A stretch of 64,000 bases of DNA from Candidatus Wolframiiraptor sinensis (lineage in GTDB: Archaea > Thermoproteota > Nitrososphaeria_A > Caldarchaeales > Wolframiiraptoraceae), in the NCBI GenBank assembly GCA_023261815.1, contig JALNKA010000001.1:97347-161346 (forward strand). The letters run 5' to 3'. The position numbers were made by a program, and so were the translations under genes. This document shows, one piece after another, positions 21,760 to 44,455 of this stretch; within the stretch, counting starts at the first letter, position 1, and every line of letters begins with the position of its first letter. The notes beneath the pieces were generated by a model. That model searched no databases. It had not been told where the DNA came from and saw nothing but the letters and a program-made list of their open reading frames with translations.

Positions 21760-23058
21760 TCATTCATTGATTATCCTCAGCTTGATAACGTGGACTGAGC
21801 ACGAGATGCATGGATCATAGTTCCTTATCGTCATCTCCACAATCCGCTGCGCAGTCTCCGGCGGCCCTTTCACGATCAGATCCCCAACCTTGAATATGTC
21901 CTCCTCCATCGCCATGTAGTTCTGGGTTGTCGGCGGGATGATGTTCGCGTAAACTATTCTGCCCAGCTCATCTATCCTGTAGCGGCGATAAAGCATCCCC
22001 CTTGGAGCCTCGACTATCGCCGCCGCCTCACCAGCCCTCACCCTCGCATCAACGTATGGCGTCTGCGGCTCGGAGTACTCCTCAACGAGCCTCCCAACCT
22101 CGATTATCGAGTGAAGATTCTCGGCGGCCCTCGCAACGATGCTCTGATAAGTATTCTTGAGCGGAGCCCTATAGCCCGCCGCCTCGAGAACATCTCTAAC
22201 CTCGGGTGCTAGGAGGTCATAGTTTAGGTTGAATCTCGCGATGGGGCCCGTGATGTAGGGCTTGCCGTTCCTCAGCCTGTAATGGAGCCCATTCGAGTAC
22301 ATCTTTTGCTCGACGGTGATGTTCTCCTCGAAGGAGTCCTCGGGAAACTCCCAGCCAAGATTATTCGCGACCAATCCCTCAAGTATCGGATATTCCTTTC
22401 TGCCTTTCAGGGACATTAGTGTCATGTCGTACTGGATGTCAGGCAGATCCATGTTGAGCACGAATTCCAAGAGCTCTTCCCCCTTCCTCCTGATCTCCTC
22501 ATAGTTGCGTGATAATGGCTCAAGCTCCTCCTTTCTGATGATCCTATAGAGCCCTCCAATCCTGAAGCCTATCGGATGGATTGCTCTGCCGCCGATTATC
22601 TCTATTGCTCTATTGCCCCAGTCCCTTACGGCGATCGCGTTCCTGACGAGGTTGGGGTAATCCTTCGCCATCTCGAGCGCCGAGTGATATCCGAGGAAGT
22701 CCGGCGCATGGAGGAAGGCGAAGTGCAGGACATGACTCTCAATCCACTCGCCGTAAAAGGCTATTTTTCTCAGCACCTGTATCTCCTCCGGGACATTTAT
22801 CTCGAGTATCTTCTCCATGGCCCTGCAAGCAGCGAAGATATAGGCCAGCGGGCATATCCCGCAGATCCTCGCCGTTATATCAGGCGCCTCAAGATATGAT
22901 CTTCCACGGAGAAATGCCTCGAAGAATCTGGGAGGCTCGAATATATTGACCTCGACGTAGTCTATCTTGCCGTTCTTCACTCTTACCCAGACTCCTCCTT
23001 CGCCCTCGACCCTCGCCAGCTGGCTGACTTTTATCTCGAAGCTCTTATCCCCGCTCAT
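21760..23058 (-). CDS. hydA: sulfhydrogenase (group 3b [NiFe] hydrogenase) alpha / large subunit
   Basis: RICGICP at the N-terminus and DPCISCSVH at the C-terminus, which are the Ni-Fe ligand motifs. Confidence 0.85.
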   Translation of the reverse strand: MSGDKSFEIKVSQLARVEGEGGVWVRVKNGKIDYVEVNIFEPPRFFEAFLRGRSYLEAPDITARICGICPLAYIFAACRAMEKILEINVPEEIQVLRKIAFYGEWIESHVLHFAFLHAPDFLGYHSALEMAKDYPNLVRNAIAVRDWGNRAIEIIGGRAIHPIGFRIGGLYRIIRKEELEPLSRNYEEIRRKGEELLEFVLNMDLPDIQYDMTLMSLKGRKEYPILEGLVANNLGWEFPEDSFEENITVEQKMYSNGLHYRLRNGKPYITGPIARFNLNYDLLAPEVRDVLEAAGYRAPLKNTYQSIVARAAENLHSIIEVGRLVEEYSEPQTPYVDARVRAGEAAAIVEAPRGMLYRRYRIDELGRIVYANIIPPTTQNYMAMEEDIFKVGDLIVKGPPETAQRIVEMTIRNYDPCISCSVHVIKLRIINE

Positions 23059-23830
23059 ACCTCTCTAGGAACCTCCTTAAGGGCTCAGACCAGCTACTAA
23101 AATTCCTCAACTTGAGGATGACCTCCTCCCTTGGAAGCCCGATCTCCTCGAATCCCCTAGCGAGCGCCTCGGGCTTCGGGTCGATCATCGGGCCAAAGCA
23201 CCCATAGCATCCGCGAGCATAACTTGGGCAGAGGGCGCCGCATCCCTCAACCATTATCGGCCCGAGGCATGGTGTGCCTCGTGACACCATCACGCAGACA
23301 TTTCCCCTGCGCTTGCATTCTTGGCATAGGCTCTCGAGCCTGTGATAGGGCCTCTTCCCGACAAGCACCTGCTTCAAGACGCTCAGGAGCTGGAGCCTAT
23401 TAACTGGGCAGCCGCTGACCTGATAATCCACCTTAATGTGCTCGGATATCGGGGTGGTCTTATCAAGGCTGTTAATCCACTCGGGCCTGGGGTAAACTTG
23501 TCTGACGACATCCCCATGATCCATCCAGTTTCTCAGCGACTGAGGCCCGCCATGGACTGCGCAGGTGCCTATCGGGATCACGATCTTCGAGTTTCTCCTG
23601 ATGCTCTTTACAACCTCCATCTCGTGGGGCGTTGGGATCGATCCCTCGATTAAAGCGACATCATAGGGCCCTGGATCAATCCTGCTGCTGGCCTCGAGGA
23701 AATACGCGATCTCGACCTTCTCAATTATCGAGAGCAGGTCTTCTCCTAGGTTTATCAGCTCATCTTGGCATCCGCTGCATGAAGAGAATTTGAAGACCGC
23801 CAGCCTCAGCTTTCCACCATTCCTGCTCAT
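23045..23830 (-). CDS. hydD: sulfhydrogenase delta / [NiFe] small subunit
   Basis: SCSGCQ, GTCA and GCP cluster-binding motifs. Confidence 0.8.
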   Translation of the reverse strand: MSRNGGKLRLAVFKFSSCSGCQDELINLGEDLLSIIEKVEIAYFLEASSRIDPGPYDVALIEGSIPTPHEMEVVKSIRRNSKIVIPIGTCAVHGGPQSLRNWMDHGDVVRQVYPRPEWINSLDKTTPISEHIKVDYQVSGCPVNRLQLLSVLKQVLVGKRPYHRLESLCQECKRRGNVCVMVSRGTPCLGPIMVEGCGALCPSYARGCYGCFGPMIDPKPEALARGFEEIGLPREEVILKLRNFSSWSEPLRRFLERYERG

Positions 23831-23833
23831 ATC

Positions 23834-24661
23834 TCATCCACCCAGAAGTATTTTTTTAATGAGCCAGTACGGGAACACGGGTCCATTCTTGCGAACGAAG
23901 TAGGGGCCCACCTGGCAGTGGCCGCATAGACCGACTCCGCATTTCATCCTCCTCTCCAGGGAGAGGTAGATTTGATTCTCCTTAAACCCGACTTCCTCGA
24001 GGGCCTTGACCGTGAAACGCATCATTATCTCGGGGCCGCAAACGAGCGCAATAGTCTTTTCAATATTTATCCTAGCCATGGGTATGAGCTCGGTGACGAC
24101 GCCGACGTTATCCCTCCAAGTTTCATCGGGGTGATCAACCGTTAGCAGGAACTCTGTGTTCGGTATCTCCCTATATCGGTCGAACTCATAGCGGTAGAGA
24201 AGGAGGTTAGGCGTCCTCGCACCATAAAGTATGGTGAGCTTACCATATTTTTCTCGGTTTTTCTCGATCTCCAAAATGACCCCCCGGAGTGGAGCTAGCC
24301 CAATCCCGCCGGCCACTATGAGAACATCCTTTCCCACAAGCCTCTCAAGAGGCCAGCCCTTGCCATAAGGCCCCCTTAGGCCCACAATACTTCCCTCGCT
24401 CAGCTTAAACAGGTAATCTGTTAGGGCGCCCACGGACCTCACCGTCTGGACTATGATCCCGCCCTCTTCGCAGCCGCAGATGGAGACCGGTGTCTCGCCT
24501 ACGCCGGGAACATAAATCTCCGTGAATTGTCCGGGTTTAGGCTGCTCCACGAGCCCCCCATGAACTCTGAAGTAAAAGGTCTTGGTATCCGGCGTCTCCG
24601 GCACAACCTTAACTATCTCGGCTCTGCCAGGCGCCATGAGGGTTCTAACTATCTCTTGCAC
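23834..24661 (-). CDS. hydG: sulfhydrogenase gamma subunit (FAD/NAD(P)-binding with 2Fe-2S, PyrK-like)
   Basis: PyrK-like fold ending in a C-terminal CGVGLCGHC motif. GTG start. Confidence 0.8.
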   Translation of the reverse strand: MQEIVRTLMAPGRAEIVKVVPETPDTKTFYFRVHGGLVEQPKPGQFTEIYVPGVGETPVSICGCEEGGIIVQTVRSVGALTDYLFKLSEGSIVGLRGPYGKGWPLERLVGKDVLIVAGGIGLAPLRGVILEIEKNREKYGKLTILYGARTPNLLLYRYEFDRYREIPNTEFLLTVDHPDETWRDNVGVVTELIPMARINIEKTIALVCGPEIMMRFTVKALEEVGFKENQIYLSLERRMKCGVGLCGHCQVGPYFVRKNGPVFPYWLIKKILLGG

Positions 24662-25739
24662 CTCGTCTCCACCTCCTTAACCACATCTCTCACAACCTGC
24701 CTGACATCTATTCCCGCGGGGCACCACGTTATACATCTGCCGCACCCCACGCAGCCGAACGTTCCAAATTGCCTAAGCCAGTACACGAACTTGTGAAGAA
24801 CCCAGTGCCTATACCTAGCATAGAGACTTTTCCTGAAATGTCCTCCCGCAACCTGCGCGTAGCTGTAGCTGTGGCATCCATCTCAGATTCTAATACGTTT
24901 CGCCGATCCATCGAGCTCCGGCTCATCGAGCACGTCGAAGCAGAAGCACGTGGGGCAGACCATGTTGCAGTTCGCGCAGCCGAAGCATTTCTCAGCAGTC
25001 TTCCTGTAAACCTCAGAATTCATCCCTATCTCAAGGGTTTCAGGGAGGTTTTCCAGCGTGAACTCAACTCGAGCTCTCTTGGACGCCTCCAGCATGAGTT
25101 CCTTAAACCGGTCAACCTGCTCATCCTCAGCCGGCCTGAGATTAAGCTCGCTGAGAACATCCACGCCAAGATCGCTTCCCGGCTGAAAGATGACGACGCC
25201 ATCGCCAATTCTGGTGTAGGCTATGTCAAATCCCTTGAACGCGAAGGGGCCGGTGCCCATGGTCGCGCAAAAACAAGTCCCGCCGGGCTCTACGCAGTTC
25301 TCAACTATGAGGAGCAGGTCCTTCCTAACTTTTCTGTAATACTCGTCTCCCAGCTCGCCTTGAACACCATCCATAATGCTTATCGCGGCGAGATCGCAGG
25401 GCTTTATGCCGAAGAAAGCCGTCTTAACAAACTCTAAGCTCGGGTACTCCACGCTCAGATCAGGCTTGATGACGAATAGGAGAAGCTCGGGGGGATATAG
25501 GAATCTCTTCGGCGAGTCCGGGCCGTTCCTGAACCTGCCACCATTATTGGCGACGCGATAATATCCGGGAGCCTGCTCATCCCCATAGCCGTAAGTAATC
25601 TCGTCAATGTCTCGAGCCTAATAGCTGAATCCACGAGCTTAGGCCCTATAACCCGATAACCCCTAGAAGTCACAGCCTTAAATAGCGCCCTAAGCTCATA
25701 CTCTATTCCAGAGTAAATCGGCCCACGAAACAACACTTG
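24649..25739 (-). pseudogene. hydB: sulfhydrogenase beta subunit HydB, with a 1-nt deletion near 25607-25616 and an in-frame TGA (24873-24875) at a conserved Trp position
   Basis: Frame A reads continuously as YRVANNGGRFRNGPDSPKRFLYPPELLLFVIKPDLSVEYPSLEF...CPTCFCFDV...RIRI-TGA-DGCHS...HWVLHKF...GCVGCGRCITWCPAGIDVRQV, ending at stop 24649. The N-terminal 45 aa (MLFRGPIY...SAIRLE) are in a different frame. Confidence 0.65.
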
Positions 25740-25747
25740 TCCCGGAA

Positions 25748-25765
25748 AGGTATAAAAGGTATAAA
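25748..25765 (-). promoter_or_regulatory. tandem direct repeat of AGGTATAAA, giving two TATA boxes upstream of hydB
   Basis: Two adjacent 9-bp copies. The distal copy is centred about 25 nt upstream of the hydB GTG/TTG start, consistent with a leaderless transcript. Confidence 0.45.
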
Positions 25766-25913
25766 GTTGTTATGATTTTAACTTTTCTTTTCTCAACGAT
25801 TCTAGGACTTCAAAATTGTTGCGAATTTGATAAGGTGGTGGCAGGAGGTCGTCCATAAACTGTGGCCACGACCCGCTCGACACTGTGGATGTGATTAAGA
25901 GATCTTTACCATC

Positions 25914-26902
25914 CTATGATTGGGCCATCATCAGCCCCTTCAAGTTCGCACTTTCCACACTCACCATGTCACGGCTCAATTTGACGTTCATGTCTATTAT
26001 TATCTCCGCGATCTCAGCTGAGAGCTCGGCCTGCCTCTTCATGCTCCATATAAACTGCGTGAAGTTCGGGCAAAGCACGTTCACATCACACTTAATCGAC
26101 TTATACCTTAGTTGGTCTACGAGCTCGCTCTCCCCGAATTCCAGGTCCTCGAAATACTTCCTTATGGCCTCATTGGCCAGCTTAACATCCCTCGAGAATA
26201 GGGCTTTCATGACTTTTTCGCGAATATCTCTGCACCGCTCATAATATTTCGTCAATTTTGAAGCGTTTCTTGATCCAGCTCAACCTCGCAAGTTAGTATC
26301 TTTAGGACGCTTCTGGCGCCTAGTTTGGATAAATCTGCCATCCTCTCGAGACAGTATCCCACTATCGCGAGGAAGGATATCTCTGAGGACCGCGTAACCC
26401 CGAGCTTCTCGGCAAAGCCTTTCTTCTTATGAGCTATCGAAAGCGCCCTGGAAAACAGGTAGTAGAGCCTATTGACCTCCTCATCCCTGATCATTACCGT
26501 TTTGGCCAGCTCCCGGTTTCCCTCGATGAACGCCCTGAAATACTCCTCTTGCATAGATGAGGCCAAATTACATATTCTCTCCAGAATCGAGTATATTGGA
26601 GACTTAAGGACATCCAGCATGCATTGTAGAATGACATGCTGCTCATTTTCATCCATTATGGAAACCCCGGTCAATAGTTTCGCCGCCTCGCGAATTTCCT
26701 TAATATGCCTATAATTCAAGCGGGTCTCCGAGGAGACCTCAATCAAATCGACACCGGCAATATAGCTTCCAACAATCAGCCTATGCAGGAGGCCGGGCTG
26801 ATCGCATAAATCCGCGTTTATCCTGCATGCTTCAAGAACGTAATCCGAGCCAGCCTGGGCGGGCCAAAGAATGAGCGAGCCATCATGAGCCTCCTCAACC
26901 AC
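25914..26902 (-). pseudogene. PhoU-domain protein (two PhoU repeats) split by a 1-nt deletion at the A-run 26255-26258
   Basis: PhoU repeat (ELAKTVMIRDEEVNRLYYLFSRAL...YCLERMADLSK) in ORF 26252..26902. The second repeat continues in ORF 25914..26255 in the -1 frame. Confidence 0.55.
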
Positions 26903-27037
26903 GAGGATATCCCCCCGCTGAAGGTTATGCTCCCTAACCCACCAATAAGGTAAAGATATCGCTTAGAGTCCCCTTACCGACACGCTGTATTTTGCGCTGC
27001 TCCATCATATCCATTAGATATATGATATATATCGAGT

Positions 27038-27080
27038 CCTCTTGATACTTATCCGATGTTCTCGGATAAGTATCAAGAGG
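27038..27080. promoter_or_regulatory. perfect 19-bp inverted repeat with a 5-nt spacer (CCTCTTGATACTTATCCGA-TGTTC-TCGGATAAGTATCAAGAGG)
   Basis: Read directly from the sequence. It sits at the 5' end of the nuoE-like gene, just downstream of an AT-rich divergent promoter region (TAGATATATGATATATATCGA). Confidence 0.7.
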
Positions 27081-27485
27081 AACGGGGAAAGGAATTCGGC
27101 GAATCTTATCGAGTCTTTGCAAAAGCTGCAGGAGAGATATGGGTTCTTGCCGAAGGACGCTCTAATGAAGCTTTCCAAGGATGTGGGAGCTCCTTTGAGC
27201 AGGATATTCGGCGTCGCGACTTTCTATCACCAGTTTAAGCTGGAGTCGCCTGGAAAAGTCCTGATCTCGGTTTGCATGGGAACAGCATGCCATCTTAGGG
27301 GCGATGCCAACAACTACGAGTTCCTGAGGAGGTTTTTAAGAATAGCACCAGGCAAATCCGTCAGCGATGATGGCCTATTCTCCTTAGAGAAGGCTAGGTG
27401 CTTCGGCTGCTGTAGCCTGGCCCCAGTAGTGAGAGTTGGCGATAAGCTCATCGGCAAGGCCACGCCCAGGAGCTTCAGAGAATAA
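27042..27485 (+). CDS. NuoE/HoxE/HydC-like thioredoxin-fold [2Fe-2S] protein; the start is uncertain
   Basis: GVATFYHQF...CMGTACHLRG...CFGCCSLAPV motifs. The annotated TTG start lies inside the palindrome. An alternative ATG at 27056 in another frame gives a NuoE-like MFSDKYQEERGKEF start, which would need a frameshift. Confidence 0.7.
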   Translation: MILIRCSRISIKRNGERNSANLIESLQKLQERYGFLPKDALMKLSKDVGAPLSRIFGVATFYHQFKLESPGKVLISVCMGTACHLRGDANNYEFLRRFLRIAPGKSVSDDGLFSLEKARCFGCCSLAPVVRVGDKLIGKATPRSFRE

Positions 27486-27549
27486 TCTCCCAGGTAAGGG
27501 AGTCGATCTTGAGGGAGGAGACTGTTCGCGGAGCTGGAGGCGATAAAAC

Positions 27550-29523
27550 ATGATGAGACAGGAGTATTGGACGCTAATGGATCCATGCTGCGATTACTGC
27601 CTTCATTCGGCGAGCAATCCTTGCGTGAAGTATGTTGTCTGCCGGGTGCGCGGGCCATTCTGTCACAAGAGCGTGATGTGCAGGAATAGGAGGCAGCAGA
27701 GGATCAAGAAGGTGCTCTATGGTCCGCAGGGCGTTAGAATCAATGTCGGCGCGTCGAGTTGCGGCTTGGCCGCTGGGGCTGAGAAGGTTCTCGAAGCGGT
27801 GAAGGATAATCTCAGGTCTATGGGTGTGGAGGCGGAAGCCTCTGCAGTGGGCTACCTGGGATTATGCTTCATGGAGCCCTTCATCGAGATACGCAGCGAG
27901 GATGGCCCCTCCCCGATTTACGGCCATGTATCCCCGGATAATGTTGGTGAAATATTTGCAAAGTATTTTGAGGAGGGTAGCGTGGATGGCGCATTTGAGA
28001 TCAGAAGGCGCACAGGCAGATTCAAGGACGAGGATAAGGTTCCATTACTTGATGAGCTCGATGTATGGAGGAAGCAGGTAAAATGGGTTTCTAGGAACTG
28101 CGGAGTGATTAACCCGGAGTCGATTGAGGAGTACATCGTCTCGGGCGGATATGAGGGGCGCTCGAGAGCGCTAATGATGAAACCCGAGGAGGTTATAGAG
28201 GAGATCAGGTTATCGGGGCTTAGAGGCAGGGGCGGAGCCGGATTCCCAACCTGGCTCAAGTGGAAGGTGTGCCGAGAGCAGCCATCTAAGGAGAAGTACA
28301 TCATCTGTAATGCCGATGAAGGGGATCCGGGAGCTTTCATGAATAGGCTGCTCGCGGAGTCCGATCCACATAGAGTTCTGGAGGGCCTCATAATTGCCGG
28401 CTACGCGATAGGAGCCTCTCATGGCGTGATATTCGTTAGGGCTGAGAAACCCCTCATGGCCGCCAGACTCGAGAAGGCCGTGGAAGATGCTCGCAGATGG
28501 GGCCTCTTGGGTGAGAACATTCTAGGGACTGGATTCAATTTCGACGTGAGGGTGATGAGGAGCGCCGGCGCATTCGTATGTGGAGAGGAGACGGCGATGA
28601 TAGCGGCCATAGAGGGGAGGCGGGCGATGCCTAGGCAGAGGCCTCCCTACCCGGCTTCGAAGGGTCTCTGGGATAAGCCGACGGTAGTCAATAATGTCGA
28701 GACGCTGGCACACGTCGCGACGATAATGGCTCATGGATGGCAGGAGTTCGCGAAGTACGGCACCGAGCGGAGTAGGGGGACGAAGATGTTCTGCGTAACC
28801 GGTGGCGTGAAGAGAACTGGTGCATTCGAGGTCCCCATAGGAACCACCATCAGAACCCTCGTGTGCGATATAGCTGGAGGGCCGCATGAGGGCAGGAAGA
28901 TAAAGGCGGTCCAGATAGGCGGCCCATCAGGCGGCTGCCTCCCGGAGAGGCTATTCGATCTGCCCATCGATTATGAGAGCCTCCAAGAGGCCGGCGCGAT
29001 AATGGGCTCCGGGGGATTGGTCGTGATAGACGACTCCAATTGCATGGTTGATGTCGCCAGATACTTCACGTCATTCACGCTGGCGGAGTCATGCGGCAAA
29101 TGCGTGCCATGTAGAACAGGCACGAAGACCCTGTATGATCGCTTATCAGCCATAGTTGAGGGGCTGGGCGATCCAGATGATCTGCGGCTGCTGGAAGAGG
29201 TTGGAACGATGATGAAGGATGCGGCCCTATGCGCACTGGGCGGAACAGCGCCCAATCCGATACTATCCTCGCTCAAGTACTTCAAAGACGAGTATGAGGA
29301 GCATATAGTGGGGAAGAGGTGCCCGGCGAAGGTTTGCAGCAAGCTCGTGACATACAATATAAACAGAGAGCTTTGCGTCAAGTGCGGGTTATGCGCTAAA
29401 TCATGCCCAGCAAACGCGATAATTAAAACCGACGATGGATTCTTCGCGGTTGATCAGCATAAGTGCATCAAGTGCGGCACATGCTTCATCACATGCCCGA
29501 GGGACGCTGTTGAGAAGAGGTGA
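27550..29523 (+). CDS. NuoF/HoxF/HydB-like NAD(P)H-binding flavoprotein with an N-terminal Trx-like domain and C-terminal 2x[4Fe-4S]
   Basis: GLRGRGGAGFPT (NADH), the FMN and N3 cluster region (ESCGKCVPCR), and C-terminal CVKCGLCAKSCP / CIKCGTCFITCP. The true start may instead be ATG 27676. Confidence 0.85.
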   Translation: MMRQEYWTLMDPCCDYCLHSASNPCVKYVVCRVRGPFCHKSVMCRNRRQQRIKKVLYGPQGVRINVGASSCGLAAGAEKVLEAVKDNLRSMGVEAEASAVGYLGLCFMEPFIEIRSEDGPSPIYGHVSPDNVGEIFAKYFEEGSVDGAFEIRRRTGRFKDEDKVPLLDELDVWRKQVKWVSRNCGVINPESIEEYIVSGGYEGRSRALMMKPEEVIEEIRLSGLRGRGGAGFPTWLKWKVCREQPSKEKYIICNADEGDPGAFMNRLLAESDPHRVLEGLIIAGYAIGASHGVIFVRAEKPLMAARLEKAVEDARRWGLLGENILGTGFNFDVRVMRSAGAFVCGEETAMIAAIEGRRAMPRQRPPYPASKGLWDKPTVVNNVETLAHVATIMAHGWQEFAKYGTERSRGTKMFCVTGGVKRTGAFEVPIGTTIRTLVCDIAGGPHEGRKIKAVQIGGPSGGCLPERLFDLPIDYESLQEAGAIMGSGGLVVIDDSNCMVDVARYFTSFTLAESCGKCVPCRTGTKTLYDRLSAIVEGLGDPDDLRLLEEVGTMMKDAALCALGGTAPNPILSSLKYFKDEYEEHIVGKRCPAKVCSKLVTYNINRELCVKCGLCAKSCPANAIIKTDDGFFAVDQHKCIKCGTCFITCPRDAVEKR

Positions 29524-29529
29524 TGTTGG

Positions 29530-30147
29530 ATGAAGATCAAGATAAACGGATTGGAGGTTGAGGCCAAGGAGGGCGAGAGAATACTCGATGTAGCTGATCG
29601 CCTAGGAATCAGGATACCAACCTTATGTTATCTCAGGGGCATATATGAGGGTGCCTCCTGCAGGATATGCGTCGTCGAGCTGAATAATGGGAAGCTCATA
29701 CCTGCATGCGCATACGAAGTATCCGACGGCCTCGTGCTCAGCACGGATACTCCTAGGATTAGAGAGAGCAGGCGCCTAACCCTGGAGCTGCTGCTCTCCG
29801 CCCATAGAATCTCATGCCAAGATTGCCCCAAGAAGGGAGAATGCGCCCTAGTAGAGTTATGCTCAGAGTACGGCGTCGAGGGGATACCGGTCTGCGCCGA
29901 ATGCTCCCTCCACGAAGAGGACTGCTTCCTCGGGAGAGGCGAGATCTGCTTGGGCCCGATCACAATCAGCGGCTGCAAAGCTGAATGTATTCGTGATGGA
30001 AAGCCGTGCGAGGGATGTAGGGGCCCCGTCACTAGGAGAGACGTGTTAGAGCGGGGTCGAGCAATATACCTCGAGCATGGCATACCGCTTGAAATGTTCT
30101 CGAGAAGCTCAAGATCTACTGCGCCTCCTCACGCGAATTCGATCTAA
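29530..30147 (+). CDS. HydA/NuoG/HoxU N-terminal-type iron-sulfur protein (2Fe-2S ferredoxin plus His-ligated 4Fe-4S) as a stand-alone 205-aa protein
   Basis: C33-x10-C44-x2-C47-x12-C60, then H92-x3-C-x2-C-x5-C, then a non-canonical 8-Cys segment. Confidence 0.7.
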   Translation: MKIKINGLEVEAKEGERILDVADRLGIRIPTLCYLRGIYEGASCRICVVELNNGKLIPACAYEVSDGLVLSTDTPRIRESRRLTLELLLSAHRISCQDCPKKGECALVELCSEYGVEGIPVCAECSLHEEDCFLGRGEICLGPITISGCKAECIRDGKPCEGCRGPVTRRDVLERGRAIYLEHGIPLEMFSRSSRSTAPPHANSI

Positions 30148-30184
30148 TTCGTGAACGCCTCATGGTGAGTGAGGTGATCGAGAA

Positions 30185-31474
30185 ATGATGAGCATCTCGG
30201 GTATTGATAGGATAGTGGGCCACGCCACCCTGGACGTGGATATCGATGGAGGAGCGCTGAATGCGCGTTTCAAGGTACTGAATGATCCGCGTTTCATAGA
30301 GGCCATAGTGATCGGCAAGAAGTACCATGAAATTCCGTCAATCGTTTCGAGGATATGCGGGCCTTGCAGCGTCAGCCACACGATAACCGCCATAATGGCC
30401 GTGGAGAAAGCTCTCGGGATAAGCGTCCCCGAGCCCGTGAAGATCCTCAGGAAGATAGCCGTGCTCGGAGAGGTGGCAGAAAATCACCTACTGCATCTCA
30501 CGCTCGTCGTCATGCCGGAATACTTTGGATACGATGATCTTCTCGAGGTCGCGAAGTACAAGCCCGAATCCCTCAGGAAGATACTGCTCATCAGATCCCA
30601 GCTTTCCAAGGTGATGGAAATGATATCAGGGAGGCTCGTCCACCCAAGCGCGCTATCAATAGGCGGGTTCACGAGAATGCCTGGAGAAGCGAGGCTCGAG
30701 GATGCAAAGAGCATCTTGAAGGAGATCAAAAGCAGGATAAGCGAGATCGTAGAGCTATTCCTCGAGACGGAGTTCCCCGAGTTTGAGGTATTAATGGAGG
30801 CCTGTGCATCCCTCAAGGACGGCTACCTCTACATCGGCGATGAGATCATCACCTCAGATGAGCGCGAGGTTAGAGCCGAGGACTATAAGAGAATATTCAT
30901 AGAGGATGTACAGCCTTACACAACTTCAAAGAGCGTAACGCTCGAGGGAATGCCAGTATACGTTGGGCCTAGGGCCAAGGTAAACTTGAAAGCGGACCTG
31001 CTTTCAGATCAGGCTAAGTCTTATCTCAAAATGAGGAGCTTCCCCCTGAGAAGCCCGTTCGATAATCTCCGGGCGCAAGCCATCGAGCTAATTCACTGCA
31101 TAGATGCCATGCAGATGTTGATCGAGGATGTGGCGAGCATTTCCAGCATAGGATCCGAGCAGAGAGAATCTAGGATCATGGCCAGAGAGGGGGCTGGAGT
31201 TGGCGTGTCCGAAGCTCCACGCGGCCTACTAATACACCATTACGAGTTTAATCGATGGGGGAATGTCATCTACGCAAATGTGATAACGCCGACGACGATA
31301 AACTCCAGGCACGTGGAGGTCGCCGCCCTAGAATTAATCAGGCACTACTTCTACGAGGACATGCCGGTCAAAGAGATAGAGCGCTATCTAAGAAAGCTCG
31401 TGCAAGCGTTTGACCCGTGCCTAGGCTGCGCAACCCACTCCGTCAAGATAAACATCAGGGGGCTCAAGCCATGA
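30185..31474 (+). CDS. [NiFe] hydrogenase large subunit (group 3, HoxH-like)
   Basis: RICGPCSVSH (L1) and DPCLGCATH (L2) ligand motifs; 429 aa. Confidence 0.85.
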   Translation: MMSISGIDRIVGHATLDVDIDGGALNARFKVLNDPRFIEAIVIGKKYHEIPSIVSRICGPCSVSHTITAIMAVEKALGISVPEPVKILRKIAVLGEVAENHLLHLTLVVMPEYFGYDDLLEVAKYKPESLRKILLIRSQLSKVMEMISGRLVHPSALSIGGFTRMPGEARLEDAKSILKEIKSRISEIVELFLETEFPEFEVLMEACASLKDGYLYIGDEIITSDEREVRAEDYKRIFIEDVQPYTTSKSVTLEGMPVYVGPRAKVNLKADLLSDQAKSYLKMRSFPLRSPFDNLRAQAIELIHCIDAMQMLIEDVASISSIGSEQRESRIMAREGAGVGVSEAPRGLLIHHYEFNRWGNVIYANVITPTTINSRHVEVAALELIRHYFYEDMPVKEIERYLRKLVQAFDPCLGCATHSVKINIRGLKP

Positions 31475-32859
31475 GAATCGGGATTTACTCGTTCGGCGGA
31501 TGTGAGGGCTGCAGATACTGGCTAATAGACTCCCTTCTGAGGATATGCGGGGAGCTGGGCGCCGAGATAGCCTACGAGCCGCTCATAGGCCTCTCCAAGG
31601 AAAGCCCGGAATACGATGCGGTGGTAATCGAAGGGGCTGTTTGCACGGAGGAGGATCTCGAGAAGATTCGAGGTCTGAGATCGCGGGCGAAATACGTCAT
31701 AGCCCTGGGGTCATGCGCCCTTCTAGGCGGGGTGCCGGGCAATAAGAGGTTCGCGGACCAGCATGCTGTTGAAAGAGTTTACCTCGGCAAACCTCTGCCG
31801 AAAAAGCCCCTCGACGTGAAGCCCGCAATCGCTCATGTGCGAGTGGACTACTGGATTAGAGGCTGCCCCCCGAACCGGGAAAACTTTGAGAAAGTCTTTC
31901 GAGCGATAATCTCCGGTATAGCCTCCGGAGAGCCGTTCAAGCTCCATGAGAGGCGCATAGAGTTCTGCAGGGATGAGTTCGCCAAGATCGAGGGAAGCGT
32001 GCTCAGGCTCGATGGAGACAAGTGCATAGTCTGCGGGAGATGCGTGGGCGTATGCGAGAAAATGGGAGTCTACGCGATAGACTTCGCCTACAGGAGCGTG
32101 AGCACGATGGTGACAACGCCCTTCGAGCTGCCATTCGATGAGAGCGCGTGCGTGCTATGCGGCCAGTGCGCGCTGGTCTGCCCGGTCGGCGCCATGCGCG
32201 AGAGAAGCGACTTGGAGAAGGTTCAGAGAATGCTGGCCAAGCCCACGGCGTTGAAGGCGTACATCGAGCCGGAGAGCCTGGCGGCCATGTCCAGCTACTT
32301 CAACCGCGAGGTTGAGGTAATAGTCGGAGCATTACTCGCGAGGGGCTTCGAGAGCGTCGCGATGTACGTGCCGGAGCCCCGCGCCGATGCCGATAAGCCG
32401 CTGATCCCCATGAGCGAAGCTGAGCGGAGGTTCGTCAACCTGCTTCATCCCGGGTTGGCTGAGAAGCTCTCGGATCCCCCAGCTCTGCCAATCGGCTCAT
32501 CAGTCCTGATAACACCATGTCTGGCCAAGAAGGCGCAGGCACGCGAGGGGGTGGTCTTAACGACGCGGGAGGCGATCAAGCTCATCTCCAGCGTGGACTT
32601 GGATGAGGTTGATGAGGTCTCGCCGATAACGCCCGCCAAGATGGGCGGAGCCTACGGGGAAGTTCATGGACCGGATGCCGTGATCAGGTTCTTGGATGAA
32701 TGCGCCGAGGGGCTGAGCGTCAGGGAGCCGACAGTGCTGAAAATATGTCCCGGCGGATGCATCAGAGGTGGTGGGCAGCCATATTACAGCGAGGACCTGT
32801 ATCGGAGGATGAGCAAGGCGGCGGCGAAGATATCCTCCGCGCTCATGGCCGTCGGCTAA
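31471..32859 (+). CDS. [NiFe] hydrogenase small subunit (HoxY-like) fused to a 2x[4Fe-4S] ferredoxin and a reduced, Cys-depleted [FeFe]-hydrogenase H-domain-like C-terminus
   Basis: MRIGIYSFGGCEGC...GSCA...GCPP (proximal cluster). Then CIVCGRCVGVCE and CVLCGQCALVCPVG. Then EKVQRMLAKPTALKAYIEP..., ITPCLAKK (L2-like), VVLTTRE and ICPGGCIRGGGQP (L3-like). There is no cysteine where the L1 TSCCPGW motif is expected. Confidence 0.8.
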   Translation: MRIGIYSFGGCEGCRYWLIDSLLRICGELGAEIAYEPLIGLSKESPEYDAVVIEGAVCTEEDLEKIRGLRSRAKYVIALGSCALLGGVPGNKRFADQHAVERVYLGKPLPKKPLDVKPAIAHVRVDYWIRGCPPNRENFEKVFRAIISGIASGEPFKLHERRIEFCRDEFAKIEGSVLRLDGDKCIVCGRCVGVCEKMGVYAIDFAYRSVSTMVTTPFELPFDESACVLCGQCALVCPVGAMRERSDLEKVQRMLAKPTALKAYIEPESLAAMSSYFNREVEVIVGALLARGFESVAMYVPEPRADADKPLIPMSEAERRFVNLLHPGLAEKLSDPPALPIGSSVLITPCLAKKAQAREGVVLTTREAIKLISSVDLDEVDEVSPITPAKMGGAYGEVHGPDAVIRFLDECAEGLSVREPTVLKICPGGCIRGGGQPYYSEDLYRRMSKAAAKISSALMAVG

Positions 32860-36666: not shown

Positions 36667-37107
36667 TTGGGCCTTGTCGAGAAGCTCGTGAGAAAATGTA
36701 GGGCGAGAAGCCCTTGGATACTCCTATTCGATACCGGAGCATGCAATGCATGCGATATAGAGATCGCCGCTTGCCTCACACCGCGCTATGATGTCGAGAG
36801 ATTCGGGGTTCTCGCGAAAGGCAGCCCTAGGCACGCGGACATACTCGTCATTACCGGGCCCGTTACCAGGCAGGTCAGGGATAGGCTCATTAGGATCTAT
36901 GAGCAAATGCCGGAGCCGAAGTACGTGGTCGCCGCAGGCACCTGCGCTACAAGCGGCGGGGTATACTGGGGGTGCTACAATACGTATCCGAGCCTTGACT
37001 CCGTCATTCCGGTTCATGCGTATGTCTCGGGTTGCCCAGTGAAGCCTGAGGCGATTCTGAGGGCGATCAGCGTGCTCGTCGAGAAGATCGAGAAGGGGGA
37101 GGCTTAA
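36667..37107 (+). CDS. NuoB/PSST-like (group-4 hydrogenase small subunit type)
   Basis: DTGACNACDIE, GTCATSGG and GCPVKPE cluster N2/proximal-cluster motifs. Confidence 0.85.
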   Translation: MGLVEKLVRKCRARSPWILLFDTGACNACDIEIAACLTPRYDVERFGVLAKGSPRHADILVITGPVTRQVRDRLIRIYEQMPEPKYVVAAGTCATSGGVYWGCYNTYPSLDSVIPVHAYVSGCPVKPEAILRAISVLVEKIEKGEA

Positions 37108-37108
37108 G

Positions 37109-37579
37109 TTGAGCGAGGAGGGTCTTCTCAGAAAGATTACTGAGAGATTTGGAGATAAGATAATTGAAGCTAAGGTTCTCGGGAAGAGAAGGGTCTCCAT
37201 CCTAGTTTCTCCTGATGCTTACAAGGATGTCGTGAGATATGCCGCCCAAGATCTCGGCTTGGAGTTTCTCAGCTGCCTGAGTGGGGTTGATCGGGGAGAT
37301 AGCCTTGAGGTCGTGGTGCACTTGGGATACTCGATGCACGTGCTCATCAAAACCCGCGTCTCTAAGGATGATCCAGCCGTGGACTCGATAACCGATATTC
37401 TCCCAGCCGCGAGCCTCTACGAACGGGAAATACATGATCTGCTGGGCATCGCATTCAAGGGCCACCCGAATCTCAAGAGGATCTTCTTGCCCGAGGATTG
37501 GCCCGAAGGAGTTTACCCGCTTAGGAAGGATTACTCTCCAGAGCATCCAAAGCCATTGAGGGGTGGTGAGGCCGTGTGA
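37109..37579 (+). CDS. NuoC (30 kDa)-like subunit
   Basis: NuoC fold (ERExHDLLGIxFxGHP). Confidence 0.8.
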   Translation: MSEEGLLRKITERFGDKIIEAKVLGKRRVSILVSPDAYKDVVRYAAQDLGLEFLSCLSGVDRGDSLEVVVHLGYSMHVLIKTRVSKDDPAVDSITDILPAASLYEREIHDLLGIAFKGHPNLKRIFLPEDWPEGVYPLRKDYSPEHPKPLRGGEAV

Positions 37580-38769
37580 ACTTCGAGGTTCCGATAGGCC
37601 CCCAGCACCCAATACACGTCGAGCCCCTGATGCTCAGGCTGAAGGTCGAGGGGGAGCTGATAGTAGACGCCGACGTAGATGTCAGCTATATTCATAGGGG
37701 CATCGAGAAGGCTCTCGAGCTCAGGCCATATATTCAGGGACTCTACCTCGTTGAAAGAATATGCGGCATATGCAATGCCGCTCAATCGCTCTGCTACTGC
37801 CTCAATGTCGAGCAGCTTCTCGGCAAGGAGGCTCCCCCTAGGGCGAGGTATCTCAGGATCGTGGTGGAGGAGCTTAGCAGGATTCACAGCCACCTCCTCT
37901 GGCTCGGCCACTACCTCCACACGCTGGGATTTGAGACCCTCTTCATGTACTTCTGGAGGGATAGGGAGAGGGTAATGGACATGCTGGAGCTCATCACGGG
38001 TAATAGAGTCACCACGGCCTATAACACGATAGGCGGAGTGAGGAGGGATCTGCCTCCGGGTGCGGAGCAGAAGCTCAGGAGAACATTGGATTACATCGAG
38101 GAGAGAGTGCGCTACTATGAGAAGGTGATAGACTCGGAGCCGACCATCCTCGCGAGAACTCAGCGGGTTGGGATCCTCAAGCCGGGAGATGCGGTGAGAA
38201 TGGGCGTCACGGGCCCGCACCTAAGAGCCTCAGGAATAAAGCACGATGTCAGGCTCGATGACCCGTATAGCGGGCATGATGAAATCCCGTTCAACGTCAT
38301 CACGTGGGACACGTGCGATTGCTACGCCAGAGTGAAGGTTAGGCTCAGGGAAACCAGCGAATGCGTGAACATGATACGCTATGCTCTCGATCACATGCCA
38401 TCCGGCGACTATAGGCTGAAGATCCCGCCGTTCTTCAAAGCCCCTCCCGGGGAGTCGTTATCGAGGGTTGAGGCGCCGAGGGGCGAGCTCGTCCATTACT
38501 CGATCTCGGATGGCGGTGATAGGCCATACAGGTATAGGGTTAGGACGCCGACGCTCGCGAACCTCCTATCCGTAGTAGAGATGCTCAGGAGCAGGGGCGA
38601 CTACGAGGTCTACATAGCCGATGTCCCGGCGATCCTCGGCGGAATAGATCCATGCATATGCTGCAGCGCGAGGATCTTGATCACCGACGAGGCCAAGAAA
38701 AGGAGGATGATCACGACGCTCGACGACATCATAAGATTCTCGCGCGGAAGGAGGGTTGAGAGAAGATGA
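37576..38769 (+). CDS. NuoD-like / group-4 [NiFe] hydrogenase large subunit with Ni-Fe ligand cysteines retained
   Basis: ERICGIC near residue 61 and DPCICCSAR near 38647-38673. Both Cys pairs that true NuoD has lost are present here. Confidence 0.8.
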   Translation: MNFEVPIGPQHPIHVEPLMLRLKVEGELIVDADVDVSYIHRGIEKALELRPYIQGLYLVERICGICNAAQSLCYCLNVEQLLGKEAPPRARYLRIVVEELSRIHSHLLWLGHYLHTLGFETLFMYFWRDRERVMDMLELITGNRVTTAYNTIGGVRRDLPPGAEQKLRRTLDYIEERVRYYEKVIDSEPTILARTQRVGILKPGDAVRMGVTGPHLRASGIKHDVRLDDPYSGHDEIPFNVITWDTCDCYARVKVRLRETSECVNMIRYALDHMPSGDYRLKIPPFFKAPPGESLSRVEAPRGELVHYSISDGGDRPYRYRVRTPTLANLLSVVEMLRSRGDYEVYIADVPAILGGIDPCICCSARILITDEAKKRRMITTLDDIIRFSRGRRVERR

Positions 38770-39731
38770 TCGAGAAGATCCTTGCCACGGTATTCTTCCC
38801 CGGAGCAATCTTCATACTGGCGGTCTCGCTCTTTTACGAGTGGGTTGATAGAAAGCTGTATGCGAGGTTCCAGAACAGGGTTGGCCCCCATCTGGCGGGC
38901 CCCTTTGGGCTCTTCCAGCCGATCGCGGACCTCATCAAGCTACTCTCGAAGGAAGATATCGTTCCAATGGCCACCGATAGGTTCCTCTTCACGCTGACGC
39001 CGATTCTAGCTCCAGCCCTGATCCTCTTCGCCTGCATGTTCCTGCCAGTGGCCGGGCCATCCGGCATAATCTCGTTTGAGGGAGACCTGATAGCAGTGAT
39101 AGCACTTCTCTCGATCTATACGATAACGGTGTATCTCGCCGGCGAGGGCTCGAATAACAGGTTCGCCTCTGTGGGCGCTGTCAGGGCCGCTGTCCAGCTG
39201 CTGGGCTACGAGATACCGCTGACGCTCAGCCTCCTGAGCGTGGCCTTAGCCGCGGGCTCGCTGAGTATTCGCGGAATAGTTGAGGCTCAGGCAGAGAGAG
39301 GTCTCTGGTTCATCGCCGGAATACAGGCAATAGGTTTCGCAATCTTCATCATTGCATCGCAGGCCGAGATGGAGAGGATACCATTCGATATACCGGAGGC
39401 CGAACAAGAGATAGTCGCCGGGTGGGAGGTCGAGTACTCCGGGAAAAGGCTTGCATTATTCAGGCTCTCAAAGGATCTCGAGCTATTCCTCCTCTCGGGG
39501 CTCGGCGCCGCGGTATTCCTGGGAGGCCCAATAGGCCCGGTGATACCGGGGCTCGAGCCGATGCTCTACACAATCTACTTCATCCTGAAGTCCATAATAG
39601 TCCTCGCGATATTCACTTTGGTCAGGGCCCTTTTCGCGAGGCTCAGGATCGATCAAATGGTCTCCTTCTCATGGAGGTATCTCATGCCCCCGGCCATGAT
39701 TCTCATAATCCTGACGGAGGTGATCATGTAG
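38766..39731 (+). CDS. NuoH/ND1-like membrane subunit
   Basis: Eight-TM NuoH pattern ([14 protein letters not shown]). Confidence 0.85.
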
Positions 39732-39733
39732 GG

Positions 39734-40084
39734 ATGAAGGTTCCCGGGCGCCTAGTGGCGGAGGCCCTGAAAAGCTTGTTCAGGAGAAGGGCCACGATTC
39801 TCTACCCATACAGGGAGCTCGACAAAGTTCATCTACCCGAGGGATTCAGGGGAAGAATAGAGTTCGATCGCTCGAAGTGCATCGGGTGCCAGCTCTGCTT
39901 CAGGGTCTGTCCCGCGAAGGCCATCGAGATCGTAGATGATGAGAAGGGAAAGAGGCCGATCTTCTACATCTACAGGTGCATATACTGCGCTCAGTGCGCC
40001 GAGGTCTGCCCGACCAAGGCGATAAGCATGAGCAAGATCTTCGAGAACATCGCCCTAAGAAAGGAGGACATGGTGGTGAGATGA
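39734..40084 (+). CDS. NuoI (TYKY)-like 2x[4Fe-4S] subunit
   Basis: [12 protein letters not shown] and [12 protein letters not shown] motifs. ATG at 39734 directly after the nuoH stop. Confidence 0.85.
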
Positions 40085-40326
40085 TGGAAGCAGTTCTCCA
40101 CATAGCGATGATAGCGCTCACACTCGTCTTCGCGATAATGGCCGCCGAGCTGAAGGACATGATGAAAGCCGTGCTCGCGTTCATGTGCGCGAACATAACC
40201 ATGGCCGCGATATTCTACCTCCTTGGAGCGCCATACCTCAGTGTTTTCCAGCTGCTAGTGTACGCGGGCGCGGTCACGATACTCCTTCTAGCAACGATAC
40301 ATGCTGGCGAGGAGAGGGGTGACTGA
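40081..40326 (+). CDS. NuoJ/ND6-like N-terminal half (3 TM)
   Basis: Small hydrophobic protein in the NuoJ position. Its ATG overlaps the nuoI stop. Confidence 0.5.
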
Positions 40327-40327
40327 G

Positions 40328-40585
40328 ATGGAGATTACGAGAATAGCCGCCGCGATACTCGCGATACTCCTAGCAGCAACTTTACTGGCCTACTCGCCTA
40401 AAATAATCCAGAACATCCGGGCGCCGAGCCTCGAGCCCACGAGGATCGAGGAGAACCCGCAGTTCCTCTGGGCTAATCGCTGGCTCGACCTCCTAGTCCA
40501 GGCATTCATGCTCTTTGCGGTCATCGCGGCGGTCTCCGCCCAGCTTAGGAGGGATATGGGCTCCCGGAGGGCGGAAGGAGAATGA
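40328..40585 (+). CDS. NuoJ/ND6-like C-terminal half (2 TM)
   Basis: A second small membrane protein, one nucleotide after the previous stop. Together the two are NuoJ-sized. Confidence 0.45.
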   Translation: MEITRIAAAILAILLAATLLAYSPKIIQNIRAPSLEPTRIEENPQFLWANRWLDLLVQAFMLFAVIAAVSAQLRRDMGSRRAEGE

Positions 40586-40902
40586 GCCTCCACGAGATCT
40601 ATTTCGCGGGCTCCCTTCTCCTGATAGTCGCCGGTCTCTACGCGATCGCATCGAAGAGGCATCTGGTCAAGATCGTGATAGGTCTCGAGGTCGTGACTCT
40701 GGGAGTGAACTTGGCGATAGCATCCATGGGTGTGAGGATAGTGGATGGCGCCCTTGTGATGGATGCTCTGGCCCAGAGCATGATCGCGATCTCGATAGCG
40801 GTGGCCGCGGCGATAACCGCATTAGCCCTATCAATAGCCCTAAACATCTACAGGCATTATGGGACATTCGACATCAGGAAGCTTAGGAGGCTGAGATGGT
40901 GA
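40582..40902 (+). CDS. NuoK/ND4L-like subunit
   Basis: Three-TM protein with the conserved Glu-containing helices (GLEVVTLGVNLA). Confidence 0.75.
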   Translation: MSLHEIYFAGSLLLIVAGLYAIASKRHLVKIVIGLEVVTLGVNLAIASMGVRIVDGALVMDALAQSMIAISIAVAAAITALALSIALNIYRHYGTFDIRKLRRLRW

Positions 40903-42455
40903 TAATCGTGAATCCTCTTAACATAATCTTGATCCTGATCGGAGCCGCGTTCCTCATCGTAATCCTCGACCCGATCTTCAGGAGGGCGAGGTTAATAGAG
41001 TTCGGGGGCGTGATCGCGAGCCTCGCGTTCACCGCGACGCTGATAATCTTGGCGATTGAGGCGGCAGCCGGGGCCACAGCTAGAACGGTGATATTCGGTC
41101 CGGATTCCCCTTTAACAGCCTCGCTCAAACTCGACGCACTAAGCATCTACCTCTCGATGATCTTCTCCGGCCTCGGCCTCATGGCCTCAATATACTCGAT
41201 CAGATACATGCTCTTCGATGTCGAGCATCTGCCCCTCGATGACCTCCTCTGGACCAGGAGAAGAGAGCTGGGCTTTGACAGATACTATGCCCTCCTCCTG
41301 ACACTGGTCGCGGGGATGATCGGCGTCACCATGGCAAACGATTTCTTCACGCTCTACGTATTCTGGGAGCTCATGGCGATCTCATCATATTCGCTCGTCG
41401 CTTTCAGGAAGTGGTCTTGGGAGGCGGTCGAGGCGGGCTTCAAGTATCTCGTAATGAGCACCCTCGGATCGCTCGCAGCGCTCCTCGGGATAGCCCTGCT
41501 CTATGGGCTCGCTGGCTCGCTCCGATTCGACGCCGTAAGGGCCGCGGTCTTCGGCGGAAACATTGCGGCCACATTCTCCCTCGCGATGATCGTGATAGGC
41601 TTCGGCGTAACGGCCGCGATCGTCCCATTCCACTCCTGGCTCCCCGACGCGCACTCCGCAGCGCCAACCCCCATCGTAGTCCTATCCGGGGTCGTGATCA
41701 AAACCGGCGTCTACGCGATACTCTGGTCCATGTTCAGGGTATTTGGCCCGGCAACATACGGCTTCGGCCCAATCCTGATAGGCCTCGGCATCCTTACGAT
41801 GAGCTTCGCCAACATCGCCGCCCTGATGCAGACGGATATCAAGAGATTTCTAGCATACTCGAGCATAGCCAACATAGGTTACATAGTCATGGGGCTGGGG
41901 CTCGCAGCCCACATCCTGAAAGCACATCCATCCGAGATCGGGCCAGCGGCTCTCGCGCTAGCCGGAGTACTCCTCCACGTGCTCAACCACGCGCTCGGAA
42001 AGGGCCTCTCATTCCTCTCAGCAGGATGTTACATAATCAGGACGGGATCCAGAGAGATAGGAAGCCTCGAGGGAGTCGGGCCCAGAATGCCCATAACAAC
42101 GGCATCGCTCGGAGTTGGGCTACTGAACCTCGCCGGAGTCCCGCCGCTGAGCGGATTCTGGAGCAAGCTCCTCATAATCTCGGCCGGCCTCGGTGTTCCC
42201 TCGGACAACCTGATGCTCGCGGCGACGATAATCTTCATACTGAACAGCATCTTAGCGGCCGGCGGCTACCTCTGGCTCCTCCAAAGGCTGGCCTTCAAGA
42301 GACCGGGATCGAGCGGGGCTTACGGGGAGATTAAGGAGGCGCCCCCGCTCATGCTAGCGCCCCTAATAATCCTCGCGGCCGCCTGCATAATGGTCACGCT
42401 CATGCTGAACCCGATCCTCCAGTTCATACAAAATATCCTGGAGGTGATCATGTGA
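40896..42455 (+). CDS. NuoM/ND4-like (Mrp antiporter-like) subunit
   Basis: FHSWLPDAHSAAPTPIVVLSGVVIKTG motif. Confidence 0.75.
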   Translation: MVIIVNPLNIILILIGAAFLIVILDPIFRRARLIEFGGVIASLAFTATLIILAIEAAAGATARTVIFGPDSPLTASLKLDALSIYLSMIFSGLGLMASIYSIRYMLFDVEHLPLDDLLWTRRRELGFDRYYALLLTLVAGMIGVTMANDFFTLYVFWELMAISSYSLVAFRKWSWEAVEAGFKYLVMSTLGSLAALLGIALLYGLAGSLRFDAVRAAVFGGNIAATFSLAMIVIGFGVTAAIVPFHSWLPDAHSAAPTPIVVLSGVVIKTGVYAILWSMFRVFGPATYGFGPILIGLGILTMSFANIAALMQTDIKRFLAYSSIANIGYIVMGLGLAAHILKAHPSEIGPAALALAGVLLHVLNHALGKGLSFLSAGCYIIRTGSREIGSLEGVGPRMPITTASLGVGLLNLAGVPPLSGFWSKLLIISAGLGVPSDNLMLAATIIFILNSILAAGGYLWLLQRLAFKRPGSSGAYGEIKEAPPLMLAPLIILAAACIMVTLMLNPILQFIQNILEVIM

Positions 42456-44452: not shown

Positions 44453-44455
44453 AAA

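Follow-up and report, generated by a model that had tools for sequence, protein, structure and literature searches.

Two lesions in hydB point to a recently formed hydrogenase beta-subunit pseudogene in a near-clonal lineage of Wolframiiraptor-like hot-spring archaea

In the 64,000-nt stretch of archaeal DNA analysed here (the window), hydB, a gene for the beta subunit of a soluble [NiFe]-hydrogenase, can be read from end to end only by passing a stop codon and a change of frame, and this raises the question of whether the gene has been inactivated, is recoded during translation or has been misread in sequencing. Recent inactivation, sequencing error and translational read-through had all been listed in an earlier note on this DNA; the first is upheld by our analysis, and the other two are not. 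Our data make it very probable that this hydB is a true pseudogene of recent origin, carried by a single near-clonal lineage of Wolframiiraptor-like archaea from hot springs.

The hydB pseudogene lies on the minus strand at positions 24649-25736, running from a GTG start codon (25736-25734) to a terminal TAG stop (24649-24651), with a 13-nt overlap with the GTG start of hydG. Translation of the main minus-strand frame gave a HydB-like protein broken by a single in-frame TGA, as had been noted before, and the N-terminal 47 residues sit in a second frame, in good agreement with the earlier figure of about 45. A full-length frame is absent owing to the in-frame TGA and a 10-nt deletion, and fragments of 93, 189 (the longest) and about 45 aa are left, compared with the 365 aa of the intact orthologue. 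The repaired translation matches PF17179, the Fer4_22 dicluster domain (E=8e-33), and both CxxCxxCxxxCP motifs of this C-terminal domain are invariant in the alignment. A database search returned the 365-aa protein P0001, which is 95% identical to HydB, together with thousands of remoter relatives. The gene order is hydB-hydG-hydD-hydA followed by the HypF gene, all four subunit genes being on the minus strand: hydG (23834-24661) encodes the FAD/NAD(P)-binding, [2Fe-2S] gamma subunit with NAD_binding_1 and DHODB_Fe-S_bind domains, hydD (23045-23830; 261 aa, the same in relatives) the small delta subunit with an Oxidored_q6 domain, and hydA (21760-23058; 432 aa, with a C-terminal DPCxxCxxH motif) the [NiFe] large alpha subunit with a NiFeSe_Hases domain. 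The best NCBIfam match of HydB, HydD and HydA is in each case the corresponding sulfhydrogenase subunit, and the top matches of HydG are AsrB and PRK08345, the sulfhydrogenase gamma model also being matched. Since every score across the operon falls far under its equivalog cut-off (the intact orthologue P0001 reaches 162 bits against 690 and 149 against 750 with the ShyB/HydB models), we class the predicted enzyme as a distant group-3b-type hydrogenase and place its HydB, a remote relation, outside the equivalogs of Thermococcales. The host is a Wolframiiraptor-like archaeon of the Caldarchaeales (Nitrososphaerota) and does not belong to the Thermococcales. The three remaining subunits had been described as intact, which is correct for hydD and hydA but not for hydG, whose tail is altered: an extra A at about 23857, in a run of A, turns the ending ...KKYFWVDEI into ...KKILLGG, so that the last 7 residues differ and hydG and hydD no longer overlap.

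The in-frame TGA occupies positions 24883-24885 on the minus strand, 10 nt away from the 24873-24875 given previously, and replaces the TGG codon of an invariant Trp (W288 in P0001 numbering) at a point in the Fer4_22 domain that has one CxxCxxCxxxCP cluster motif on either side. Trp stood in this column in 39/39 homologues inspected, among them 16/16 aligned homologues and 23/23 genome loci of GTDB species representatives, these loci having been retrieved by a GTDB genome scan with an intact hydB orthologue as query, which found other Wolframiiraptor species and no genome of the window's lineage; the beta subunit of Pyrococcus furiosus sulfhydrogenase I (9nez_B) likewise has Trp there, in 'RRWDSC'. 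In the DNA alignment, the closest intact relative carries TGG, and the window differs by one G-to-A transition. The proposal that the stop falls exactly on a conserved Trp codon through a single TGG-to-TGA change is borne out by these comparisons.

The frame break is of another kind than first described. One missing G had been assumed, and DNA alignments reveal instead a 10-nt gap with its junction at about 25596-25606 on the minus strand. Intact relatives carry two tandem repeat copies, GACGAGATTC followed by GA(C/T)GAGATTC; one copy has been lost, and the window retains a single copy at 25597-25605. The loss shifts the frame by a net -1 and removes 3 conserved residues, so that even the repaired HydB is without three residues present in every homologue. 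We infer that the deletion arose through slipped-strand mispairing at the tandem repeat. The G-to-A transition and the loss of the repeat copy are two independent mutations disabling hydB. Phase variation was also considered for this repeat and rejected; a single copy offers nothing from which the repeat could expand again, and the TGA adds another lesion independent of the first.

Every sequence at hand is a metagenome assembly, and two neighbouring indels, at 26259 in a run of A and at 23857 in a homopolymer, occupy typical error sites; both facts lend something to the view that the hydB lesions are sequencing or assembly errors and that the true gene is intact, a view that we hold to be very improbable. 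The TGA and the 10-nt deletion themselves are not homopolymer events, and the same sequence was recovered repeatedly. In a public collection, 20 contigs encode a HydG protein identical to that of the window, and 10 contigs encode the exact 189-aa hydB fragment. Nine MAG loci were retrieved, each from a different assembly, and match the window at 100% identity over 3.1-12.8 kb; all of them span both lesions except that on the L006 contig, which stops inside hydB before the deletion site. At least nine identical MAGs are available from two WGS series (accessions JALN* and JAW*), of which JAW* falls inside the range of a Tengchong hot-spring data set of 152 metagenomes. The Logan per-run assembly of SRR17794516, built with a different pipeline from the MAGs, shares both the TGA and the deletion and differs by 2 SNPs (25641 and 23696), which makes it a different consensus with the same lesions. 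A full hydB was called by gene callers in none of the lesion-bearing assemblies. Because identical lesions occur across the MAGs and in a SNP-distinct Logan assembly, sequencing or assembly error is excluded as the cause of the hydB lesions, and the error option of the earlier note is contradicted. All lesion-bearing assemblies represent in essence one genotype, so they replicate the measurement and not the evolutionary event.

Could the disrupted gene nevertheless be expressed by recoding? Under such a scheme, UGA would be read as Trp or selenocysteine and ribosomes would shift frame across the deletion to yield a functional beta subunit. The stop does lie exactly on a Trp codon, UGA is the stop codon most easily misread by tRNA-Trp, and the rest of the hydB ORF is still 96% identical at the protein level to intact relatives. 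Stop codon usage in the window is normal, however: TGA ends 17 of the 44 long ORFs, including that of the overlapping neighbour hydG, and is the commonest stop there, and the window holds 179 ordinary TGG codons for Trp. UGA is not reassigned to Trp. On the alignment, selenocysteine at the TGA can be ruled out, as the earlier note rightly anticipated, since the aligned residue is Trp, not Cys, and a Trp column would make selenocysteine senseless. No SECIS was found in the window, in line with what had been noted before; a gathering-threshold Rfam scan of the whole window gave no match, an ARAGORN scan of the window gave no tRNA-Sec, and the RNA fold downstream of the TGA was no better than that of shuffled sequences (z = -0.75). 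Neither the TGA nor the frame break recurs in any orthologue, all orthologues being single-frame, and the comparison with orthologues that had been called for thus shows intact relatives with TGG, none of them sharing the TGA. The frame break is a lineage-specific 10-nt deletion at a site that is not conserved, which argues against a programmed ribosomal frameshift. Two unrelated lesions would have to be bypassed, 3 conserved residues would be missing even after a frameshift, and hydB shows a modest signal of relaxed constraint, drawn from few substitutions. Recoding is therefore extremely improbable in our view, and the read-through once proposed finds neither unusual TGA use nor a conserved recoding site in its favour.

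If hydB is a pseudogene, its relatives should tell when it became one. An intact 365-aa hydB is present in the four relatives L001, L035, L036 and L037, three of which, when aligned to the window DNA, show about 96-97% nucleotide identity; the gene is intact also in Ca. W. gerlachensis and Ca. W. allenii and in remoter Nitrososphaeria and Desulfurococcaceae. Both lesions are fixed in every assembly of the lineage examined and are derived on the window branch. Since hydB is intact in the ~97% relatives and in the other Wolframiiraptor species, the sequences date its inactivation as recent and lineage-specific, later than the separation of lineages that now differ at about 3% of nucleotides. In pairwise comparison with L001, hydB has a dN/dS of only 0.20 and hydG one of 0.15, so that the decay of hydB is slight. 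Counting changes unique to the window at codons where L035 and L037 agree, we found 9 non-synonymous (including the nonsense change) and 9 synonymous changes in hydB, which are few substitutions; the corresponding totals for seven neighbouring genes that are intact are 37 and 122 on the same branch (Fisher p=0.022), and between the two intact relatives the hydB counts are 3 and 18. Five window replacements (P51T, R215K, A227V, M240I and D243N) hit fully conserved sites, defined by agreement among all outgroups and the four intact close relatives. These data suggest modestly relaxed constraint on hydB along the window branch, as far as so few substitutions can indicate.

The damage extends beyond hydB. 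An 18-kb part of the window was compared with L035 and L037 by alignment, and we polarised the neighbouring lesions as derived with W. gerlachensis and W. allenii (three outgroup genomes). Immediately upstream of hydB, an AbrB/SpoVT-PhoU regulator-like gene (25914-27008, minus strand) has had its reading frame split in three, through a +1 insertion at 26962 together with a -1 deletion at 26259; in relatives it is a single 364-aa ORF. The divergent intergenic (promoter) region between this gene and a hoxE-like gene (27013-27080) is about 92 nt shorter than that of relatives, with 24-nt and 68-nt deletions adjoining window-unique stretches of 8 nt and 7 nt in the alignment, so that a net loss closer to 77 nt is possible. 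In the neighbouring soluble hydrogenase, both on the plus strand, the hoxE/nuoE-like gene (27078-27485) has a 1-nt deletion at 27470 that puts 4 residues in place of its last 27, and the hoxU-like gene (29530-30147) has a 1-nt deletion at 30095 that puts 17 out-of-frame residues in place of its last 31. Upstream of hydB, the TATA-box-like element TTTATACCT forms a 9-nt tandem duplication (25748-25765, minus strand), and relatives have one copy. The coding lesions, six frameshift indels plus the nonsense codon, are confined to 23857-30095, and in the 18-kb alignment no such lesion was found in glmS, hypF, hydA, hydD, hoxF, hycI, hypE or hypD, nor in either catalytic subunit of the second hydrogenase. 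The group-4 membrane-bound hydrogenase cluster in the window is apparently intact, as are the hyp maturation genes; a membrane-bound group-4 hydrogenase has been proposed as central to Wolframiiraptor energy metabolism (PMC9246946). In that cluster, the ORFs at 36667-37579 were examined as a candidate split gene, and this was rejected, the ORFs being separate NuoB-like and NuoC-like genes of the group-4 hydrogenase.

What would the loss of hydB mean for the enzyme? The stop lies between the two Cys motifs, so the remaining fragments would be unable to form the dicluster domain, and the sequence predicts that no full-length beta subunit is made. In the P. furiosus sulfhydrogenase, the beta subunit is the [4Fe-4S] relay that links the NAD(P)H/FAD/[2Fe-2S] gamma subunit to the delta-alpha hydrogenase dimer. 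By analogy, a group-3b enzyme without this relay would be unable to couple H2 to NAD(P); as beta serves as the Fe-S relay in P. furiosus, NAD(P)-coupled H2 turnover should be lost here as well, and the soluble NAD(P)-linked hydrogenase cluster may be in early decay.

A different outcome would follow if the lesions are real and the enzyme has been remodelled without losing its function, HydG-HydD-HydA working without beta or with a beta-like Fe-S protein that is encoded elsewhere or taken from the adjacent NuoEFU-type module. Features consistent with this are that hydD and hydA keep their full length and have few non-synonymous changes on the window branch (8 against 21 synonymous), that the start of hydG and the proximal TATA box have both been retained, and that the lineage is abundant enough for repeated assembly into long contigs. 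However, the contrast between hydD plus hydA and hydB (9 and 9) is not significant at these counts, hydG is without its native C-terminus and its hydD overlap, the neighbouring module carries two frameshifts itself, no hydB paralogue was found within the 64-kb window, and the four-gene set is kept in all relatives examined. We consider remodelling quite unlikely, and a recently formed pseudogene remains our preferred explanation for hydB.

The AbrB-PhoU regulator and its promoter region separate the two operons. That lesions cluster around this regulator and the two soluble-hydrogenase operons suggests region-wide relaxed selection. In a more specific scenario, which we regard as unlikely, both soluble NAD(P)-linked [NiFe]-hydrogenase modules would be at an early stage of a decay that spans the region and started with loss of the regulator and promoter; HydD/HydA and HoxH/HoxY would have been kept through too little time for loss, or through a function of the beta-less enzyme. 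Should the beta-less enzyme indeed keep a function, nature would have produced a group 3b hydrogenase derivative with three subunits.

The hydB pseudogene, although ordinary as a kind, is not previously described in the Wolframiiraptor and Caldarchaeales literature examined, and the Wolframiiraptor paper makes no mention of the hydB operon or of any pseudogene. Group 3b and 3d hydrogenases are listed in Caldarchaeales (PMC11094006), and surveys of hot-spring archaea, that study among them, type hydrogen metabolism by the large-subunit gene alone. Such typing would score the present lineage as positive for both 3b and 3d despite a broken beta subunit and frameshifted electron-transfer subunits, and the lineage thus provides a case where typing by large subunit overstates hydrogenase capability. 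It also provides a well-dated gene loss, with intact sisters (~97% identity) in the same data set (JAW* series). Wolframiiraptor has been described as a fermenter relying on membrane-bound hydrogenase (PMC9246946), and the lineage may be used for studying the loss of soluble 'redox-valve' hydrogenases in such a fermenter.

Among known systems, the P. furiosus sulfhydrogenases offer counterparts in domain content and gene order: the beta subunit of sulfhydrogenase I (HydB; PDB 9nez/9nf0, chain B) and ShyB of sulfhydrogenase II have the same AsrA-like and Fer4_22 content, the hydB-hydG-hydD-hydA order is the same, and the Trp at the TGA site is conserved. The match to the P. furiosus beta subunit (E=5e-37) covers residues 78-363. 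In contrast to HydB and ShyB of P. furiosus, the gene studied here is a distant relation, belongs to a Caldarchaeales host and is disrupted. AsrA (TIGR02910) is a member of the same superfamily as HydB, and its system likewise has an AsrB-like partner (HydG matches TIGR02911 with 224 bits); unlike that system, the operon scores below the cut-offs and has [NiFe] small and large subunits in place of AsrC. The orthologues from Wolframiiraptor-clade MAGs are closer, with protein identities of 95-96% for the nearest (P0001/L001, L035 and L037) and 85-88% for Ca. W. gerlachensis (L008) and Ca. W. allenii (L010), and their gene order is the same all the way from glmS and hypF to the end of the second hydrogenase; they differ from the window in that each has TGG, two copies of the repeat and one unbroken frame of 365 aa.

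The lesions were not confined to hydB, the broken beta-subunit gene of the group-3b-type [NiFe]-hydrogenase. The adjoining minus-strand gene (25914-27008), which resembles an AbrB/SpoVT-PhoU regulator, has gained one nucleotide at 26962 (+1) and lost one at 26259 (-1), so that its coding sequence is divided among three frames; its orthologue is a single 364-aa ORF in three close relatives with intact hydB (L001, L035 and L037) and in both Ca. W. gerlachensis and Ca. W. allenii. Compared with close relatives, the divergent intergenic region between this gene and the hoxE-like gene (27013-27080) lacks about 92 nt. Deletions of 24 nt and 68 nt adjoin short stretches, of 8 nt and 7 nt, that only the window has, and these deletions may affect the promoters of both divergent units.

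On the plus strand, two genes of the neighbouring soluble hydrogenase carry lineage-specific 1-nt deletions, at 27470 in the hoxE/nuoE-like gene (27078-27485) and at 30095 in the hoxU-like gene (29530-30147). The C-terminal 27 and 31 residues, respectively, are thereby replaced, and each gene loses its overlap with the next. Within the hydB operon, an additional A in an A-run at 23857 alters the final seven residues of HydG, the gamma subunit encoded on the minus strand, so that hydG and hydD, which overlap in relatives, lie apart in the window. We also observed that a TATA-box-like element, TTTATACCT, immediately upstream of the hydB start, forms a 9-nt tandem duplication (25748-25765) and is present as a single copy in relatives.

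Because the JAW* accession series, from the Tengchong hot-spring data set, includes intact lineages (L001 and L035) as well as the broken one, the two kinds form a natural comparison pair.

Further along the plus strand (36667-45940), NuoB-like, NuoC-like and NuoD/[NiFe]-large-subunit-like genes precede long ORFs. The cluster, which appears intact, probably encodes the membrane-bound hydrogenase of group 4 (Mbh/Mrp-type) that has been described in Wolframiiraptor. The second soluble [NiFe] hydrogenase (27078-32859, plus strand) is of uncommon composition, with the gene order E-F-U-large-small. It comprises NuoE-like and HoxU-like subunits, a NuoF-like subunit that carries a CCxxC prefix domain at its N-terminus and a ferredoxin domain at its C-terminus, and a 462-aa small subunit fused to a 2x[4Fe-4S] domain, together with a large subunit that scores highest against the sulfhydrogenase ShyA, not HoxH.
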